A stretch of 64,000 nt of DNA from an uncultured Chloroflexia bacterium. GTDB lineage: Bacteria > Chloroflexota > Limnocylindria > Limnocylindrales > CSP1-4. The notes under the pieces are model-generated. The model was not told where the DNA came from. It ran no database searches and saw nothing but the letters and a program-made list of their open reading frames with translations. The first letter of the stretch is position 1. Every line of letters begins with the position of its first letter. Location of the stretch: positions 64,001 to 128,000 of the forward strand of contig CAVQJC010000010.1 in the NCBI GenBank assembly GCA_963712745.1. Reading direction: 5' to 3'. Position numbers and translations under genes: made by a program. Of this stretch, positions 37,034 through 45,814 are shown in pieces.

Positions 37034-39631
37034 CTAGCCCTCGCCCCCGTTCTTGGCCAGGTGGCGCTGCATGGCCGCCTTGCGGCTGAGGTTCACACGA
37101 CCCTGGCGATCGATCTCGATGACCACGACCATGATCTCGTCGCCGACCTGCACGACATCCTCGACGGTGGGCACGTGGTAGTCGGCCAGCTCGCCGATGC
37201 GCACGAGGCCCTCCTTGCCCGGCAGGATCTCGACGAACGCGCCGAAGCCCATGATGCGCGTGACCTTGCCCAGGTACAGCGCGCCGACCTCGACCTCGCG
37301 GGTGAGTGACTCGATCCACTGGATGGCCTTGGCGGAGTGCTCCGAGTTGACGGCCGCGATCTCGACGCTGCCATCGTCTTCGACGTTGATCTCCGTGCCG
37401 GTCTCTTCCTGGATCTTGCGGATCGTGGCACCACCCTTGCCGATGATGTCGCGGATCTTCTCAGGGTTGATCTTGATGGTGATGATGCGCGGCGCGAAGT
37501 CGCTGACATCGCCGCGAGCGGACGGCAGGACCTCGGTCATCTTGCCCAGGATGGTCATGCGCGCGGTGTAGGCCTTCTCCAGGCCCTGGCGGATGATGTC
37601 CTCGTTGATGCCCTGGACCTTGATGTCCATCTGCAGGGCCGTGACGCCGTCAGCGGTGCCGGTGACCTTGAAGTCCATGTCACCGAAGAAGTCCTCCTTG
37701 CCGAGGATGTCGGTGAGGACCGTGAAACGGTCGCCATCGGTGACCAGACCCATGGCCGCGCCGGCGACCGGAGCCTTGATGGGCACGCCCGCATCCATGA
37801 GCGCCAGCGTCGAGCCACAGGTCGAGGCCATGGACGTTGAGCCGTTGGACGTGACGCACTCGGAAACGAGACGGATGACGTAGGGGAACTCTTCCTGGTC
37901 GGGCAGGACCGGGACGAGGGCCCGCTCGGCTAGCGCGCCGTGACCGATCTCGCGCCGGCCAGGGCCGCGCATGAACTTGTTCTCACCGGTGCTGTACGGC
38001 GGCATGTTGTAGTGGTGCAGGTAGCGCTTCGATTCTTCGGGGCTGATGGTGTCGATGCGCTGCACATCGCTCGAGGGGCCCAGCGTGGCCACGGTGAGCG
38101 CCTGTGTCTCGCCACGCGTGAACAGGCCCGAGCCGTGGGCGCGTGGCAGCAGACCGACCTCCACCGAGATGGGCCGGATGGTGTCCACGTCGCGACCGTC
38201 GATGCGCAGGCCCTCGTCGAGGACGAGCTCCCGGACGGTCTTCTTGTGCAGCAGCGTGGTCAGGCTCTTGCTCATGCCGGAGGCCACGAGGGCCGCCTCG
38301 AACGCAGCGTCGGCGACATCGGCGTCACCACCACCCTTGCGCATGCGCACCGAGTCGGCCACGGCCGACTTGAAGGCGTTGACGCGGACCGGCAGGTCCT
38401 CGGCCATGCGCTGCAGCAGGGCAGCGGTGGCCTCGGCATCGGCCAGGGCGCGGTGAGTGGGATCGACCGAAAGCTCGAAGAACTCGACCAGGTCGGCCAG
38501 CTTGTGGGCGTCGAGATCGGGGTAGCCGGCCCGTGCGAGCACCAGCGTGTCGAGGTACTGACCGGGTTCGATGCGGGTACCGTCGGCGAGGGCAGCTTCG
38601 ATGAAGCTGATGTCGAAGCCGACGTTGTGGCCAACGAGGATGTCGTCCCCGGCGAAGTCGAGCAGCTGGGCGGCCGCCTCGGATGGACTGGGGGCGCTGG
38701 CCACGTCGGCGTCGGTCAGGCCGTGGATCTGCTTGCCCACGATGCCGCGAGTGGGCTTGACGAGCGTCTCGAAGCGGTCGGTCACATTGCCGCCGGCGAG
38801 TCGCACGGCACCGATCTCGACCAGCTCGCCGGTCCGCGCGTCCTTGCTCGTGGTCTCGGTGTCGAAGACGACGAAGGACTCGCCCGATTCGACCGCGTCG
38901 ACGAAGTCGATGACGGAATCCACGGCAGGTTCGAGATACGGGATCTGCTTGGCCTTGCCGACCATGGCCTGCAGCTCCTCCTGGAGCTCGATCACGGGCA
39001 GCAGGCTCTTGTGGCCGAACATGATGGCGTCGGCCATGACCGACTCCGGCAGGATCTTGGCGCCAGCCTCGACCATCATGATGGCGTCGCGGGTACCGCT
39101 GACGATGAGGTCCAGCTCGGACTCATCCATCTGGCTGGCCGTGGGGTTGACCACGAACTCACCACCGATGCGACCGATGCGCACCGCCGCGATGGGGCCC
39201 AGGAAGGGGATCTCGCTGATGGTCAGCGCGGCCGATGCGGCGATGGTGCCGATGGTGTCAGGGTTGTTCTCCTGGTCGGTGGAGAGGACCGTGAGAACGC
39301 ACTGCACGTCGTCCTTGTAGCCCGTGGGGAAGAGCGGACGAATGGGACGGTCGGTGAGGCGGGCGGCGAGGATGGCTGCCTCCGACGGGCGAGCCTCGCG
39401 CTTGATGAAGCCGCCGGGGATCTTGCCCGCGGCGTACATCCGCTCTTCGAAATCGATGGTGAGCGGGAAGAAGTCGAGACCGGCGCGGGGGTCGGCCCGA
39501 TTGGCCGTACCCAACAGCATGGTGTCGCCGTACTGCACGGTCACGGACCCGCCAGCAAGCCGAGCAAGCTTGCCCGTCTCGATGGTGAGCGTGCGACCGC
39601 CGAATTCGGTCGTGAGAGTGGTTACCGTCAT
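37034..39631 (-). CDS. pnp: Polyribonucleotide nucleotidyltransferase (PNPase) with an inserted DEDDh exonuclease domain
   Basis: DFFPL...IPGGF, RLTDRPIRPLF, HGSGLFTRGETQ, RREIGHG, SNGSTSMAS, GDMDFK, KH and S1 domains; 865 aa because of the insert. Confidence 0.97.
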   Translation of the reverse strand: MTVTTLTTEFGGRTLTIETGKLARLAGGSVTVQYGDTMLLGTANRADPRAGLDFFPLTIDFEERMYAAGKIPGGFIKREARPSEAAILAARLTDRPIRPLFPTGYKDDVQCVLTVLSTDQENNPDTIGTIAASAALTISEIPFLGPIAAVRIGRIGGEFVVNPTASQMDESELDLIVSGTRDAIMMVEAGAKILPESVMADAIMFGHKSLLPVIELQEELQAMVGKAKQIPYLEPAVDSVIDFVDAVESGESFVVFDTETTSKDARTGELVEIGAVRLAGGNVTDRFETLVKPTRGIVGKQIHGLTDADVASAPSPSEAAAQLLDFAGDDILVGHNVGFDISFIEAALADGTRIEPGQYLDTLVLARAGYPDLDAHKLADLVEFFELSVDPTHRALADAEATAALLQRMAEDLPVRVNAFKSAVADSVRMRKGGGDADVADAAFEAALVASGMSKSLTTLLHKKTVRELVLDEGLRIDGRDVDTIRPISVEVGLLPRAHGSGLFTRGETQALTVATLGPSSDVQRIDTISPEESKRYLHHYNMPPYSTGENKFMRGPGRREIGHGALAERALVPVLPDQEEFPYVIRLVSECVTSNGSTSMASTCGSTLALMDAGVPIKAPVAGAAMGLVTDGDRFTVLTDILGKEDFFGDMDFKVTGTADGVTALQMDIKVQGINEDIIRQGLEKAYTARMTILGKMTEVLPSARGDVSDFAPRIITIKINPEKIRDIIGKGGATIRKIQEETGTEINVEDDGSVEIAAVNSEHSAKAIQWIESLTREVEVGALYLGKVTRIMGFGAFVEILPGKEGLVRIGELADYHVPTVEDVVQVGDEIMVVVIEIDRQGRVNLSRKAAMQRHLAKNGGEG

Positions 39632-39757: not shown

Positions 39758-40027
39758 CTAGCGGCGCAGGCCGAGCCGTTCGATGACGGACTGGTACCGG
39801 GCAGCATCCTTGCGCATGAGATACGCAAGCAGGCGGCGTCGCGTGCCAACGAGCTTGAGCAAGCCGCGGCGCGAGTGGTGATCCTTGGGGTAGCGTCGTA
39901 GATGCTCGGTCAGCCCCGCGATCCGCTCCGTGAGCAGTGCGACCTGGACTTCCGGCGATCCGGTGTCACCTTCCTTGGTGGCGTAATCGGCAACGACGCC
40001 TGCCTTCGTTTCCCGCGTCAGCGGCAA
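39758..40027 (-). CDS. rpsO: 30S ribosomal protein S15
   Basis: [23 protein letters not shown]; TTG start after GGAGG. Confidence 0.98.
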
Positions 40028-40676
40028 CTGGTCCTCCAGCCTATCCATATACCTATCTGTTACCGCGCGGCAGCATAGCACAGTGTCTCAGGATAGGCGT
40101 GCACCTGGACGCGCGATAAGGCGGCGAGCCGCCGCATAGTCTGTGGTTCGCGCGGGCGCCCGTCGCTTGGTTGAAGAGCATTGTGACCTATCAGGCCCCG
40201 CTGCGCAAAGCCGGGGGTCGTTCCAGGATCTGCCAGTGCACGGCTGCTGCCTGGCTCAACTGCCTCACCATCATCAGGCACGAGCGGCGCCGGGCCAGTC
40301 AGGCGCGTCATGTCGAGATCGCGGTTCATCTTGCACTTGCCGGTCATGCCCTCGACCTTGATCGTGCCGGTCATGATCATTGCCTTGACGGCTGCCCTGG
40401 CCAACCAGTCGGCCGTCCGACCGCCTCTCGATCGATCGCTCATCGCGGCTGGGCTTGACCTTGATCCTGGACGCGCCCGCACCTGGCAGGGCTGTGTTGT
40501 CGCCCGGACGCAGAGGCTTGTGGTCGGCCCGCACGCTACCCTGTCCACGACAGGAGGACGAGAATGGCGACCAGCGGCCCGGGCATGGGCGTTGTGCACG
40601 TTGTCGACGCCGACCACGCGTGCGCCGTCGGGGTCGGGCGTGAACGCGAAGCACGCATGCCGGTGCTCGGCGCGCG

Positions 40677-42305
40677 GTGACCGACGACCCCCTGGCCTCT
40701 GCGCCAGTCGTGCTCAACGGCGCCGAGCTGACCGTCCCCGACGTGGAGTCGGTGGCACGCGGTGAGCGGGACGCGGTGCTGGCCGACGATGCCCGAGCGC
40801 GCGTGGCCGAGGCGCGCGCGGTCGTCGAGCGTTTGGTCGCCTCCGGTGAGGTCGTCTACGGGGTGACGACCGGTTTTGGCGCCCTGGCCTCGACGTTCGT
40901 GCCCGCAGCGCGGGCTCGCGAGCTGCAGGAGCGGTTGCTGTCGAGCCACGCTGCCGGAGTCGGTGAACCGCTGCCGACAGAGGTAGTGCGCGCGATGTTG
41001 CTGCTGCGTGCCAACACCCTGGCGCTGGGCCACTCCGGCTGTCGGCCGGAACTCATCGATCGTCTGCTGGAGCTGCTGCGTCTTGGCCTCCACCCGGTCG
41101 TGCCGGCCCAGGGCAGCGTCGGCGCATCGGGAGACCTCGCCCCCCTGGCCCATCTGGCACTGCCGGTCATCGGCCGCGGCCGGGTCGAGGTCGAGGGCCA
41201 GGAGTTGCCGGCGGCAGAGGCCCTCGCCGCAGCCGGCCTCGAACCGCTGTCGCTGGAGCCCAAGGAAGGCCTGGCTCTGCTCAACGGCACCCAGATGATG
41301 AGTGCCATCGGCGCGCTCGTACTGGCCGCTGCCGACCGGCTGGCCCGGACCGCGAGCGTGACCGCTGCCATCTCGGTGGAGGCGCTGCGCGGCACCGAGG
41401 TCGCGTACTCCGCCGCGCTCCAGCACACGCGCCCGCACCCCGGCCAGGTCCAGACGGCGGCCGAGCTGCGTTGGCTGCTGCGCGACTCGACCATCCAGTC
41501 GGCTCATCATGGCCACGACCACCGCGTCCAGGACCCCTACTCGCTGCGCTGCGTCCCGCAAGTCCACGGTGCAGCGCGCGATGCGCTCGACAACCTCCGC
41601 CGGGTGCTCGACATCGAGCTCAACTCGGCCACCGACAACCCACTCGTCTTCCCCGAAGGCGGCAACGTGCCCGAGGACGCTCTCGCCACCGGCCGCGGCC
41701 TGGTCATCAGCGGTGGCAACTTCCACGGCGAGCCCATCGCGCTCGCGCTCGACTACGCCAAACTGGCCATCGCCGAGATCGGCTCGATCAGCGAACGACG
41801 GGTGGCCCTGCTACTGGACCCTCGCCTCAACGATGGGCTGCCGGCGTTCCTGGGCACCTCGGCCGGGCTCGACTCGGGCTTGATGATCCTGCAGTACACC
41901 GCGGCTGCCCTCGCCTCCGAGTCCAAGGTGTTGGCCCATCCGGCCTCGGCCGACTCGATACCCACCTCGGCCAACCAGGAGGACCATGTCTCGATGGGCT
42001 CGATCGCCGCGCGCAATGCACAGGCAGTGCTCGAGCACAGCGAACGCATCGTGGCCATCGAACTCATCTGCGCCTCGCAAGGGCTTGACCTGCGACTCGA
42101 CTTGCAGCCGGATACGGCACCAGGCACCGGCGTGGCGCAGGCGCATGCGCGCGTGAGAGCCGTCATCGAGCGCCTCGAGCGCGACCGCGAACCCGGGCCG
42201 GACCTTGAGGCCGCGTTCCGCCTCGTCCACGACGGTGCGCTCGTCGACCTGGCCACCCCGCCAGCGACCGTGGGCACGTCGTGGCTGGGACCCGACCCTC
42301 GATGA
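40677..42305 (+). CDS. hutH: Histidine ammonia-lyase (MIO-dependent)
   Basis: YGVTTGFG, SHAAGVG, GSVGASGDLAPL, QDPYSLRC.PQVHG, GGNFHGEP, NQEDHVSM. Confidence 0.92.
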   Translation: MTDDPLASAPVVLNGAELTVPDVESVARGERDAVLADDARARVAEARAVVERLVASGEVVYGVTTGFGALASTFVPAARARELQERLLSSHAAGVGEPLPTEVVRAMLLLRANTLALGHSGCRPELIDRLLELLRLGLHPVVPAQGSVGASGDLAPLAHLALPVIGRGRVEVEGQELPAAEALAAAGLEPLSLEPKEGLALLNGTQMMSAIGALVLAAADRLARTASVTAAISVEALRGTEVAYSAALQHTRPHPGQVQTAAELRWLLRDSTIQSAHHGHDHRVQDPYSLRCVPQVHGAARDALDNLRRVLDIELNSATDNPLVFPEGGNVPEDALATGRGLVISGGNFHGEPIALALDYAKLAIAEIGSISERRVALLLDPRLNDGLPAFLGTSAGLDSGLMILQYTAAALASESKVLAHPASADSIPTSANQEDHVSMGSIAARNAQAVLEHSERIVAIELICASQGLDLRLDLQPDTAPGTGVAQAHARVRAVIERLERDREPGPDLEAAFRLVHDGALVDLATPPATVGTSWLGPDPR

Positions 42306-43306: not shown

Positions 43307-44272
43307 CTAGCCCGCGGCCTCCGGCGAGATGAAGACCTTGTCAGGGTAGAGCCGCCCAGCCTCCACGTGCGCCATGGCCACGAGCACCCCGCGCTCGTCG
43401 AGCACGCGCACGATATCGGCCGCCCCGAGCACGCTCGAAGGGTCCAGGGGGCCGGAGACCGTGCCCCGGACGCGGATGATCTGCCCCCGGGCGATGGCCT
43501 CGCGGTCGCGTTCCGGCACCTGCACCATGGGGATGTGGTCGAGCCCGGCGTCGGGCGAGAGCAACAGCGCTTCGATGTTGCCCGCTGCCAGCTCCTGCTT
43601 GAGCCGGTCGAGCGAATGCGCGGCATCGAGGGTGAAGGGACCGCTGGCGGTCCGCGTGAGGGCGCCCAGGTAGCCACCGCAGCCGAGTTCCCGACCCAGG
43701 TCGCGAGCGAGCGAGCGTACGTACGTGCCGGCACTGCAGCGAACCTCGAGCTCGGCCATCGGCCGATAAGGGTCGGCCGTGTCCCAGTCGGTGAGCGTGA
43801 GCTCGTGGATGGTCACGCTGCGCGCTGTCAGCTCCGGCTTCTCCCCGCCCCGCGCCAGCTCGTAGGCTCGCTTGCCTCCCACGTGGACAGCTGAGTGATC
43901 GGGCGGTATCTGTTCGATCTGGCCTCTGAACCCGGCCAGGGCGGCCTCGACGGCCCCGCGACTCGGAGGCGGCCCGTCCGTCGCTGTCATCTCGCCGTCG
44001 ATATCGTCGGTCGTCGAGCTGGCGCCGAAGACGACCGAGGCGCGGTAGCCCTTGGTGTCCCCGCGGTGGTAGTCGACCATGCGCGTGGCGCGGCCGAGGA
44101 ACACCGGCAGCACGCCCATCGCGAACGGATCGAGCGTGCCGCCGTGACCGACGCGCCGAACCCCCGTCAGGCGACGCACCGTATCGATGACGTCGTGGGA
44201 GGTCGGGCCCGCGGGCTTGGAGACGACGATGATGCCGTCGATGCGGGGTCCGTCGTCGCGCCGCCGCCCCAT
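43307..44272 (-). CDS. truB: tRNA pseudouridine(55) synthase TruB
   Basis: KPAGPTSHD, GHGGTLDP, CSAGTYVRSL. Confidence 0.96.
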   Translation of the reverse strand: MGRRRDDGPRIDGIIVVSKPAGPTSHDVIDTVRRLTGVRRVGHGGTLDPFAMGVLPVFLGRATRMVDYHRGDTKGYRASVVFGASSTTDDIDGEMTATDGPPPSRGAVEAALAGFRGQIEQIPPDHSAVHVGGKRAYELARGGEKPELTARSVTIHELTLTDWDTADPYRPMAELEVRCSAGTYVRSLARDLGRELGCGGYLGALTRTASGPFTLDAAHSLDRLKQELAAGNIEALLLSPDAGLDHIPMVQVPERDREAIARGQIIRVRGTVSGPLDPSSVLGAADIVRVLDERGVLVAMAHVEAGRLYPDKVFISPEAAG

Positions 44273-45294
44273 CAGCGAGCCGAGAGCTCGTCGAGCAGCT
44301 GCTGTGCCAGGCCCAGGACTGCGGGCACGGCCTCGTCGATGGGGCCGTCGAAGGTGGCCCCCGCGGCACGCGCGTGTCCGCCGCCGCCGTAGACCCCGGC
44401 CAGCCTGGTGGCATCCACGCCTTCGTCACGCGTTCGGACCGAGAGGCGGACCGAGCCGGCGACATCTTTGAACAGGATCGTGACCTCGGCTGTAGCCGAC
44501 TGGGCAAGCAGGTCGATGAGCCCCTCTGACATCTCCTGGGTCGCGCCCGTGACCTGGTAGTCATCCTCGCTCGCCACCGACCAGGTCAGGCGGCCATCGG
44601 CGGAGGTCTCGAGGCGCGCGAGCACCCGCCCGAACAGCCTCAGCTGGGCGTTGGGCTTGGTGCGATAGATGCGCCGCGCGATCATCGGCAGATCGGCACC
44701 GGCGGCCACCAGCTCGGAGGCCACGCGCAGCGTGCGCGGCGTGGTATTGGAGTGGGCGAAGTTGGCAGTGTCGAAGACCAGCCCGGCGGTCAGGTCCTGG
44801 GCGATGTCGCCGCCAGCCGCGTCGTAGCCGAGCCCGAGATGAGGCATCAGCAGCGAGACCTGCTCGCAGGTAGCCGCTGCCTCGGCATCGACCCAGTCGG
44901 TGGTCCCGAACCCCGGGTTCGAGACGTGATGATCGATGTTGACGATGGGCACTCGCGCGAACAGCCCCGCATCCTGGGTCGCGACCGCTCCCACCCGGGC
45001 AAGGTCACCGCAGTCGCAGACGACGATGAGGTCGGGGTCGAGATCAGGCTCGGGCGCCGTGCGGAAGCGCTCGACCTGGGGCATGAAGTCGTACATCTCT
45101 GGGACCGGGTCCGCGCACACGAAGTTCGTGCGCGCGCCGAGCGACTCGAGGGCAAGGCCGATCGCCAGCGCCGAGCCGAGCGCGTCGGCATCGGGGTTCT
45201 CGTGGCACGTGAGCATCACGCGCTTGGCAGCGAGCAATCGCTCCGGCACCTCTGCGGGCACAGCCTCGAGGTCCGACGCAAGCAGGGAGCGCAT
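44272..45294 (-). CDS. nrnA: DHH-family phosphoesterase (nanoRNase NrnA-like)
   Basis: HENPDADALGS, NIDHH, DT, GGGGHARAAG. Confidence 0.9.
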   Translation of the reverse strand: MRSLLASDLEAVPAEVPERLLAAKRVMLTCHENPDADALGSALAIGLALESLGARTNFVCADPVPEMYDFMPQVERFRTAPEPDLDPDLIVVCDCGDLARVGAVATQDAGLFARVPIVNIDHHVSNPGFGTTDWVDAEAAATCEQVSLLMPHLGLGYDAAGGDIAQDLTAGLVFDTANFAHSNTTPRTLRVASELVAAGADLPMIARRIYRTKPNAQLRLFGRVLARLETSADGRLTWSVASEDDYQVTGATQEMSEGLIDLLAQSATAEVTILFKDVAGSVRLSVRTRDEGVDATRLAGVYGGGGHARAAGATFDGPIDEAVPAVLGLAQQLLDELSAR

Positions 45295-45298
45295 GCCT

Positions 45299-45814
45299 TC
45301 AGCGACCACGTCGTTTCCTGGCTTTGCGCAAAGACACCCGGTCAACGCGACGGCGGTAGCCCGGAGGCAGAGGTTCCGCTACGACATCGGGATCGGCCGG
45401 GTCGTTGAGCGATGTCGGCGTGGGCAGCGCGGGCACCTCGGGGGCCGGCTCATCCACGTGACCGCCGCTGCCCTCGAACTCCGCTTCGACCTGCTCGAGT
45501 AGCTGCATCACGCGGGTACCCCGCTGGGCGCTGTCATCCTCGCGCAGGTGCAACTCGGGAATGCGCCTGAGGTGCAGCTTGCCCAGGTTGTGGCGCACGA
45601 AGGGCATGGCCCGGCCGAGCGCTGCCATGGTGGCTTTGCGCTGATCGTCATCCCCGATGACCGAGGCGAACACGGTGGCATGTCGCAGGTCGGGCGTGGT
45701 CTCGACGCTGGTGATGGTCACGAAGCCCACCCGCGGATCATGCACCTCGCGCTGGACGATGGCGCTGATCTCTTCCTGCAGGAGGTGGTCGACGCGCCTG
45801 GTGCGCTCGCTCAC
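45299..45814 (-). CDS. rbfA: Ribosome-binding factor A with a C-terminal extension
   Basis: DPRVGFVTITSV..TPDLRHA, RRIPEL..DDS. Confidence 0.95.
   Translation of the reverse strand: MSERTRRVDHLLQEEISAIVQREVHDPRVGFVTITSVETTPDLRHATVFASVIGDDDQRKATMAALGRAMPFVRHNLGKLHLRRIPELHLREDDSAQRGTRVMQLLEQVEAEFEGSGGHVDEPAPEVPALPTPTSLNDPADPDVVAEPLPPGYRRRVDRVSLRKARKRRGR

Follow-up and report, generated by a model that had tools for sequence, protein, structure and literature searches.

We analysed a window of 64,000 nucleotides (positions 64,001 to 128,000 on the forward strand of contig CAVQJC010000010.1, assembly GCA_963712745.1) from an uncultured bacterium of the phylum Chloroflexota; all coordinates below are those of this window. 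Its minus strand carries pnp, the gene of polynucleotide phosphorylase (PNPase). PNPase is among the best-studied enzymes of RNA decay. In the protein encoded here a complete 3'-5' exonuclease domain of the DEDDh type is nested between the two RNase PH cores, PH1 and PH2. The gene, its parts and its upstream neighbour are as follows (the basis of each assignment is given in brackets).

37034..39631, minus strand: pnp, 865 codons and the stop codon (list of open reading frames, Pfam, NCBIfam)
38948..39631, minus strand: RNase PH1 core, residues 1-228, ending ...QAMVGKAK (Pfam RNase_PH, RNase_PH_C at 145-208; secondary structure of the model)
38873..38947, minus strand: all-alpha linker, part 1, residues 229-253, with a helix at 238-248 (model and alignment with insert-less relatives)
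38414..38872, minus strand: DEDDh 3'-5' exonuclease insert, residues 254-406 (PF00929, PDB match, invariance, substitution rates, model confidence)
38861-38863, minus strand: catalytic codon D257
38855-38857, minus strand: catalytic codon E259
38612-38614, minus strand: catalytic codon D340
38453-38455, minus strand: catalytic codon H393
38438-38440, minus strand: catalytic codon D398
38213..38413, minus strand: rest of the all-alpha linker, residues 407-473, with helices to 429, at 437-451 and at 455-473
37517..38212, minus strand: RNase PH2 core, residues 474-705, bearing the phosphorolytic site; SNGSTS at 595-600, FGDMDFK at 649-655
37310..37483, minus strand: KH domain, residues 717-774 (Pfam KH_1)
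37079..37294, minus strand: S1 domain, residues 780-851 (Pfam S1)
39758..40081, minus strand: rpsO, ribosomal protein S15, directly upstream of pnp (PF00312, E 9.4e-35)

The reading frame is continuous over all 865 residues. Pfam detects two RNase_PH domains, RNase_PH_C, KH_1 and S1 in the protein, and PF00929 (RNase_T) between the two PH cores. The PF00929 match extends over residues 254-406 and over the full profile (1-164 of 164; E 5.5e-29, 102.2 bits against a cut-off of 24), and chance does not account for it. An earlier note on this DNA, made from the letters alone, had claimed that a DnaQ-like DEDDh domain, intact and in an unbroken frame, lies between PH1 and PH2, and these claims hold. 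The interval that it assigned to the domain, 38414-38875, corresponds to residues 253-406, and the motifs that it quoted lie at residues 253 (FVVFDTETT), 333 (VGHNVGFD), 359 (YLDTL), 393 (HRALADA) and 476 (RIDGR), the PH1 terminus ...QAMVGKAK ending at 228. All five D-E-D-H-D residues are present, and the catalytic motifs of PNPase (SNGSTS at 595, FGDMDFK at 649) are intact, as are the KH and S1 domains by Pfam. The NCBIfam equivalog model of PNPase, TIGR03591, matches with 947.8 bits (cut-off 525.05) in two stretches with the insert between them; PF03726 matches residues 457-481 with 21.5 bits, under its cut-off of 24.6.

The source genome (84.55% complete) has a single PNPase-length match, which is thus the sole PNPase found there. 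The order rpsO-pnp is the usual arrangement. Because rpsO lies directly upstream and the genome has no second PNPase, the insert-bearing protein is the housekeeping PNPase of the organism.

The earlier note had placed the exonuclease in the position of most of the alpha-helical domain that joins the PH cores. This part of its description does not stand. In an AlphaFold2 monomer model built from a 62-sequence alignment (mean predicted local distance difference test, pLDDT, 84.6; predicted template modelling score 0.77) the insert has a pLDDT of 85-95. A helix at 238-248 is followed by the alpha/beta DEDDh fold from residue 253; the last DEDDh helix, 395-429, runs unbroken into the linker, residues 407-429 being its tail, and the helices 437-451 and 455-473 come next. 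When 39 PNPases are aligned, the region of residues 229-473 comprises 241-247 residues in each of the 20 rows with the insert and 79-91 residues in each of the 19 rows without it. The part of the linker outside the DEDDh domain, about 92 residues, is as long as the entire helical domain of the insert-less relatives, several of which align from residue ~397-422 on. Since this length is the normal one and the model keeps four linker helices, replacement of the helical domain is ruled out: according to model and alignment, the all-alpha linker between PH1 and PH2 is retained and the DEDDh domain is inserted between its helices 1 and 2. By the model, the insert is rigidly mounted, because its last helix continues straight into linker helix 2.

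The helical domain of E. coli PNPase lies, according to the structural report, on the face of the torus opposite S1 and KH, where it forms part of a pore through which the active site can be reached in a second way (PMC2723993). From this published position, the DEDDh domain would sit on the ring face opposite the KH/S1 entrance for RNA, beside the side pore of the helical domain. A PDB fold search with the whole model returned only canonical PNPases, with chains all of 730 residues or fewer. In a comparison with the ESM Atlas every score was about 0.80, the same level as for shuffled proteins.

The earlier note had asked for reads across both junctions, as a check against a chimeric assembly. 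We examined 41 genomes of two families of the class, the source genome included. In 30 of them a single uninterrupted match spans the whole 865 residues; in ten the gene is fragmented, at contig ends or by frame breaks, and G020 has no PNPase match. The families of the class are denoted here f1 to f5, the source genome belonging to f1. In a phylum-wide draw all 15 sampled genomes of f1, f2 and f4 (source genome included) have a contiguous PNPase match across the insert. Both junctions are also covered in independent public runs, by short contigs that cross them: 38855-39166 with one difference in run X2, 38838-38945 and 38167-38384 without differences in run X1, and 38361-38530 with nine differences in run X3. 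These are Logan contigs of about 100-310 bases and low depth, and the whole 1101-base stretch is spanned by no single contig; uncovered bins in some runs carry no meaning, and run X16, an RNA library, is not proof of transcription. The contiguous matches in many genomes together with the bridging contigs rule out a chimera.

Related sequences are already deposited. A search with residues 225-485 against 5.8 billion proteins gave 475 proteins at E<=1e-3. Among the best 120 of the 475, nearly all are 860-870 residues long and combine PF00929 with PH, KH and S1 domains; their source labels are Chloroflexota or Candidatus Limnocylindrales proteins from metagenome-assembled genomes, and their annotations read PNPase or 'DNA polymerase III epsilon family exonuclease'. 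Two proteins with other labels, P0095 (Candidatus Sulfotelmatobacter sp.) and P0016 (Anaerolineae bacterium), share the architecture; faulty binning or labelling is a more probable cause of these labels than spread beyond the clade.

The active-site residues of both parts are conserved. In an alignment of 132 sequences, 128 with and four without the insert, D257, E259, D340, H393 and D398 are invariant in 128/128 insert-bearing sequences, so the relatives do not have the degenerate catalytic residues that the earlier note had named as grounds for doubt. The Exo I D-x-E, Exo II D and Exo III H-x4-D of the insert align to the motifs of PDB entry 2p1j. N336 is kept in 125 of the 128 and D361 in all of them. 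In PH2, the residues S598, S600, D651, D653 and K655, which we take from the roles in the E. coli enzyme to bind phosphate and metal, are kept in all 132 rows. Over 55 within-genus pairs the median ratio of nonsynonymous to synonymous substitution rates (dN/dS) is 0.225 for the insert; PH1 has 0.121, PH2 0.080, KH-S1 0.131 and the two flanking helical segments 0.35. The insert evolves under purifying selection, looser than that on the cores (0.08-0.13) and tighter than that on the linker.

We consider it very probable that the insert is real and catalytically competent. The opposite explanation, an assembly or annotation artefact or a functionless insertion in decay, has a negligible probability, and we found nothing in its favour: independent assemblies in three families carry the insert, contigs of other runs bridge its junctions, and both the invariant catalytic residues and the dN/dS of 0.225 argue against decay. 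One same-genus relative (G018) has, besides an intact copy on contig C88, a second PNPase with the insert at G018:C57:119232-121795, which consists of three frame-shifted pieces with one TGA and 72-93% identity; a pseudogene, mixed strains or contamination (listed at 4% for this genome) could account for it.

The domain-architecture search across genomes proposed in the earlier note returned the same architecture in three families of one Chloroflexota class. An insert-only query across the class (E<=1e-20) matched 35/35 genomes of f1, 5/5 of f2 and 39/40 of f4, in frames of about 830-1265 residues; the PNPase context was verified directly in the 41-genome and phylum-wide draws and elsewhere inferred from frame length and score. 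The insert is kept even in the strongly reduced f2 genomes (G025-G029, 1.0-1.4 Mb). The families f3 (8/8 checked) and f5 (1/1) have an ordinary PNPase in frames of 737-814 residues, on which the match is split into about 1-230 and about 450-855 and skips the insert. In the other Chloroflexota classes 134 of 136 genomes have a match, and among the match rows listed (130 individual rows of this phylum-wide draw are not) it is likewise split and skips the insert.

When the linker and insert columns are left out of the PNPase tree, the 20 insert-bearing rows group in a single clade (support 100/100); next to it lies a clade of the f3 and f5 rows (100/100), and the tree shows a single change of the insert state. 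Read most simply, these sequence data mean that the insertion happened once, in the ancestor shared by f1, f2 and f4, within the class labelled Candidatus Limnocylindrales in databases.

The earlier note had suggested likeness to RNase T or oligoribonuclease, which our searches do not support. The best NCBIfam models for the insert are those of the PRK07883-type DEDD exonuclease linked to GIY-YIG (151.7 bits), the PolC exonuclease, the DinG exonuclease (NF005981, 107 bits) and the general dnaq domain (TIGR00573, 82 bits, cut-off 71.5); the dnaQ equivalog TIGR01406 reaches 73.9-77.5 bits, far below its cut-off of 222.7. The insert matches 28 NCBIfam families, and the 25 of them that are listed include no model of Orn or RNase T; neither protein is among its ten PDB sequence matches. 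The closest solved sequence is the PolC-type exonuclease of T. maritima (2p1j, E 7.2e-24), and the further PDB matches are PolC (9qpc, E 9.8e-19), S. aureus DinG (8zef, E 2e-13), Cas2-DEDDh and DnaQ epsilon. Judged by these matches, the insert belongs to the DinG/PolC/DnaQ branch of DEDDh exonucleases and not to the RNase T/Orn branch.

Against 1.84 billion cluster representatives the insert has 28015 matches at E<=1e-3. Among the best 150 of these 28015, PNPases (fragments or full lengths, at least 49% identity) come first, and at ~30-49% identity they are followed by DEDDh proteins that stand alone or are linked to DinG, PolC, BRCT or GIY-YIG parts. Had a distantly related DEDD domain been inserted independently into PNPase in another phylum, it would not surface among the best 150 of 28015; our genome-by-genome survey covered Chloroflexota.

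We then placed the insert in a careful maximum-likelihood tree of 68 DEDDh domains, to which outgroup DinG domains had been added. The PNPase inserts form one clade (support 100/98), which lies inside a group of 39 rows (81/85) as the sister of 25 members of that group (89/84). The other members of the group are 14 DinG domains of further classes of Chloroflexota, five from f3, six DinG-like representatives of ~900-967 residues and one of 303 residues; nearly all are N-terminal domains of DinG-type proteins of ~900-1000 residues. Thus the insert is most likely a DinG-type exonuclease domain, as far as its sequence can tell.

This careful tree replaced a quick domain tree, the deep topology of which was unreliable, a constrained search being 95.6 log-likelihood units better. 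In the quick tree, the sister of the PNPase inserts was a family of proteins of 356-377 residues (P0188, P0215, P0233) that have a C-terminal DEDDh domain and an N-terminal part of ~140 residues without a Pfam match; in the careful tree it is not.

A clade that unites the inserts with the DinG domains of their own class was assessed with the approximately unbiased (AU) test. On the first data set it had p-AU 0.958, the free search there being poor and beaten by the constrained one; on the careful tree it had p-AU 0.278 with a log-likelihood difference of -15.4 and was not rejected. Direct descent of the insert from the lineage's own dinG is neither shown nor rejected by these trees.

In f3 and f5 the DEDDh matches sit in a protein of ~900 residues (P0272) with an N-terminal RNase_T domain followed by DEAD, DEAD_2 and Helicase_C_2, by which domain order it is a DinG-type exonuclease-helicase. 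With P0272 as a query, full-length matches were found in 19/19 genomes of f3 and in the one of f5. In f1 (17/17 and the source genome) and in 16/20 genomes of f4 only the first ~180 residues match, with 38-47% identity and inside PNPase; in f2 there is no match in three genomes at E<=1e-15. The helicase part of DinG alone has no match at E<=1e-3 in five insert-bearing genomes, four of which are 91-98% complete, and PF13307 is found in 0/5 insert-bearing versus 5/5 insert-less genomes of the class. Pfam finds no helicase domain (DEAD_2, Helicase_C_2) in the insert-bearing PNPase either. In other classes a DEDD-DinG protein is present in 63 of 91 genomes at E<=1e-25, and in 0/10 insert-bearing genomes of the same draw. 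Flags of one internal TAG on some DinG matches (L043, L044, L047, L055, L056) do not indicate recoding; the stops lie upstream of the true start, because the P0272 query carried untranslated leading residues.

Exactly one PF00929 domain was found in 13/18 genomes of f1 (source genome included), 17/20 of f4 and 14/19 of f3. Most genomes of the class therefore have a single such domain, in PNPase or in DinG, and no stand-alone gene like that of DnaQ epsilon. In the source genome no PF00929 gene was found besides the PNPase insert, at the completeness given above.

We favour the reading that a DinG-type DEDDh domain was merged into PNPase and took up the exonuclease work of DinG, to which we assign a probability of roughly 0.55. 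In this reading a single insertion of the domain into the PNPase linker occurred in the ancestor of f1, f2 and f4, and the separate DEDDh-DinG helicase protein was lost in the insert-bearing lineages, its helicase half being discarded. Two 3'-5' exonucleases that elsewhere work as separate proteins would thus have become one. We read the pattern as a merger because DEDDh-DinG is gone in these lineages and the insert is mostly their sole DEDDh domain. That the insert functionally replaces the DinG exonuclease appears to us a little better supported than its negation.

Several observations weigh against this reading. The DinG-type grouping is moderately supported (81/85), by an ultrafast bootstrap that had not fully converged; the careful tree makes the insert the sister of all sampled DinG domains, not specifically of those of its own class, and the earlier quick tree placed it elsewhere. 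As many as 28 of the 91 genomes from other classes lack a DEDD-DinG match at 1e-25. Loss of DinG is thus common in the phylum, and loss and insertion on the same long branch could coincide by chance. The source genome, moreover, is only 84.55% complete. One PF00929 domain per genome is a tendency: more than one match occurs in 5/18 genomes of f1, 2/20 of f4 and 5/19 of f3, one f4 genome (G097) has none, and f2 holds both the insert and a second, stand-alone DEDDh protein of ~200 residues.

The single PF00929 domain also invites another explanation, namely that the insert is the replicative proofreader, an epsilon-like domain carried by PNPase where no other DnaQ-like domain is present. The insert is the only PF00929 domain in the source genome and in most relatives, and its TIGR00573 score exceeds the cut-off. 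This is nevertheless extremely improbable, since the insert falls so far short of TIGR01406 (74-78 bits vs 222.7), a nested domain has no free C-terminal tail for binding the polymerase, and the single DEDDh domain of the sister families rides on DinG, not on a polymerase. Many bacteria proofread with a PHP domain.

The inventory of other 3' exonucleases bears on two further alternatives. The RNB domain of RNase II and RNase R was found in none of 41 genomes of the class (the control was positive in 11 of 14 reference genomes), and the insert-less families also lack it (f3 0/13, f5 0/1). By these domain searches the class seems to be without a processive hydrolytic 3' exoribonuclease, and, because of this lack of RNB, PNPase is probably its main processive 3' exoribonuclease. 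The insert might then serve RNA decay only, helping PNPase past structured stems, damaged or modified 3' nucleotides or low phosphate and thereby compensating for the missing RNase R, with no relation to the role of DinG. The housekeeping rpsO-pnp context and the retention of the insert in genomes of 1.0-1.4 Mb agree with such a role, as does the absence of RNB. We regard it as unlikely: f3 and f5 are equally without RNB and have no insert, so the missing RNase R does not discriminate the carriers and was rejected as the reason for the insert, and the reciprocal pattern with DinG is left unexplained.

The second alternative is a built-in nanoRNase, in which the DEDDh domain at the product side of the ring hydrolyses the leftovers of 2-5 nucleotides on which PNPase stops, as Orn and REXO2 do as separate proteins. 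Its predicted position on the face of the helical domain, beside the pore to the active site, would suit this task. Outside pnp, the source genome yielded no PF00929 gene, of the Orn type or otherwise, and mitochondrial PNPase and REXO2 are described as cooperating (PMC7261184). However, the genes upstream of pnp in the window provide a candidate for this function:

44272..45345, minus strand: DHH/DHHA1 protein, NrnA-like nanoRNase candidate, adjoining truB
43307..44272, minus strand: truB, neighbour of the NrnA-like gene
40677..42305, plus strand: aromatic amino acid lyase of the histidine/phenylalanine ammonia-lyase type (PF00221, E 4e-192)

The NrnA-like gene thus lies a few kb upstream of pnp. 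DHHA1 matches occur in 41/41 genomes of the class, and families with and without the insert both have short, NrnA-like DHHA1 frames at a distance of a few kb from pnp. By these domain matches, a nanoRNase candidate is already present in the class. Besides, the insert is of the DinG/PolC/DnaQ type with none of the Orn or RNase T models among its listed families, and the insert-less sister families do without it. Hence we hold a built-in nanoRNase to be quite improbable.

The truB and NrnA-like genes share one base, at 44272. The lyase gene, on the opposite strand between rpsO and truB, breaks the usual nusA-infB-rbfA-truB-rpsO-pnp neighbourhood.

Recent work on DinG of Firmicutes gives the favoured merger a possible biochemical content. 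According to these reports, DinG of Listeria is a dual 3'-5' RNase and DNase; it breaks down unprocessed rRNA, in vitro as well as in vivo, independently of its ATPase motif, and RNase R and PNPase are suggested to finish the degradation after it (PMC12774634). DinG of B. subtilis is described as degrading single-stranded DNA (ssDNA) and the RNA strand of hybrids and as having no robust activity as a helicase; PNPase is mentioned there as an enzyme that may redundantly process 3' tails (PMC12525004). PNPase itself is reported to have a 3'-5' activity on ssDNA that is used in repair (PMC2709576, PMC3241651, PMC5379764). The substrates (single-stranded 3' tails) and the pathways (rRNA quality control, 3'-tail processing) that the two enzymes share in Firmicutes would fit their merger.

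In the merged enzyme as we picture it, the DEDDh part would be an Mg-dependent hydrolytic RNase and DNase that releases nucleoside monophosphates (NMPs) at three sites per trimer, and the PNPase part would work by phosphate-dependent phosphorolysis, releasing nucleoside diphosphates (NDPs) at the three PH2 sites. Both activities would act on single-stranded 3' tails, with or without phosphate, on RNA and probably on DNA. Unprocessed or defective rRNA and decay intermediates are the likely substrates, and ssDNA tails or the RNA of R-loops are possible ones. An enzyme of two chemistries, with a trimer that bears three hydrolytic sites, had already been proposed in the earlier note. Our data show the architecture, its conservation and single origin, the DinG-type affinity of the insert and the reciprocal gene pattern; like the proposal of the note, the activity of both sites, the substrates and the takeover of the DinG exonuclease job are inferred.

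RNA quality control as the main role in vivo is a tentative suggestion, to which we give rather less than even odds. A role mainly on DNA or R-loops is more doubtful still. In that case PNPase would serve as an ssDNA-binding platform for an exonuclease of repair or replication stress, acting on 3' tails at breaks, stalled forks and R-loops. The closest solved relatives of the insert (2p1j, 9qpc, 8zef, Cas2-DEDDh, DnaQ) do act on DNA, and DinG and PNPase of B. subtilis both process ssDNA 3' ends according to the sources cited above. On the other hand, Listeria DinG acts on rRNA in vivo even though it prefers DNA in vitro (PMC12774634), the KH and S1 domains and the housekeeping operon point to RNA, and no feature of the sequence discriminates between the two sugars. 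On balance we consider an enzyme mainly for DNA unlikely.

A bolder elaboration is a bacterial 'mini-exosome', in which the 3' end switches between the PH2 and DEDDh sites within one molecule. The end would be threaded via the KH/S1 face to the PH2 site; where phosphorolysis stalls (at a damaged or deoxy 3' nucleotide or a stable stem, or at low phosphate) it would be handed off through the side pore to the DEDDh site, which would clip it hydrolytically and return it, similar to the shuttling between polymerase and exonuclease sites in proofreading polymerases. In the synthetic direction the DEDDh site would edit the tails added by PNPase. As a corollary, a ring exonuclease would have replaced a helicase motor, DinG, as the carrier of the same nuclease domain. 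All of these steps taken together are improbable in our estimate.

The insert-bearing PNPase can be compared with several known systems. With the canonical enzymes (E. coli, C. crescentus; 7ogl, 4aim, 3gcm) it shares the PH1-helical-PH2-KH-S1 order, the phosphorolytic residues and the rpsO-pnp context; it differs by ~160 extra residues that make up a complete DEDDh fold within the helical domain, solved PNPases being no longer than 730 residues. DinG of the Firmicute type (S. aureus 8zef, B. subtilis, L. monocytogenes) has a DEDDh domain that is probably of the same sub-group, judged by the tree (81/85), the 8zef match and NF005981, and by analogy with it the insert is probably a dual RNase/DNase on 3' tails. 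In contrast to DinG, no helicase domain is present in the protein or was found in the insert-bearing genomes searched, and the host is a phosphorolytic ring, not a superfamily 2 motor. PolC, the closest solved sequence relative, carries the same fold as a nested insertion, inside its PHP domain (RNase_T is nested within PHP in P0138 and P0170). However, PolC is a template-dependent DNA polymerase, whereas the host here is an exoribonuclease and template-independent polymerase. Orn and RNase T, which are free-standing dimers, belong to the same superfamily and Pfam family PF00929 but are not the nearest sub-families by NCBIfam and PDB.

The eukaryotic and archaeal exosome likewise combines an RNase PH-fold ring with a hydrolytic 3'-5' exonuclease of the DEDD superfamily, Rrp6, and with Rrp44, all as separate subunits, and the eukaryotic ring is inactive. 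In the protein described here the link is covalent, the active-site residues of the ring are kept, and the DEDD domain is of the h and not the y type.

Full-text literature searches found no description of a PNPase with an insert of the DEDD or DnaQ type, and the PDB search found no PNPase with such an insert, in agreement with the earlier note, which knew of no characterised enzyme of this architecture. Both parts are well-known families. The architecture appears to be uncharacterised, though hundreds of such sequences are already in databases under routine names.

To our knowledge, every characterised form of PNPase is purely phosphorolytic. If the hydrolytic site is active, the enzyme would be a new design, with two 3'-5' chemistries on one ring, NDPs and NMPs as products, and action both dependent on and independent of phosphate. 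It is carried by a clade that abounds in soils, sediments and fresh waters and of which no model is in culture; therefore the enzyme is accessible only as a recombinant protein. The reciprocal pattern with DinG turns a recent and surprising claim, namely a part for the exonuclease of DinG in RNA quality control beside PNPase and RNase R, into a testable evolutionary prediction. It also suggests that in the exonuclease-bearing DinG proteins it is the nuclease rather than the helicase that is under selection.

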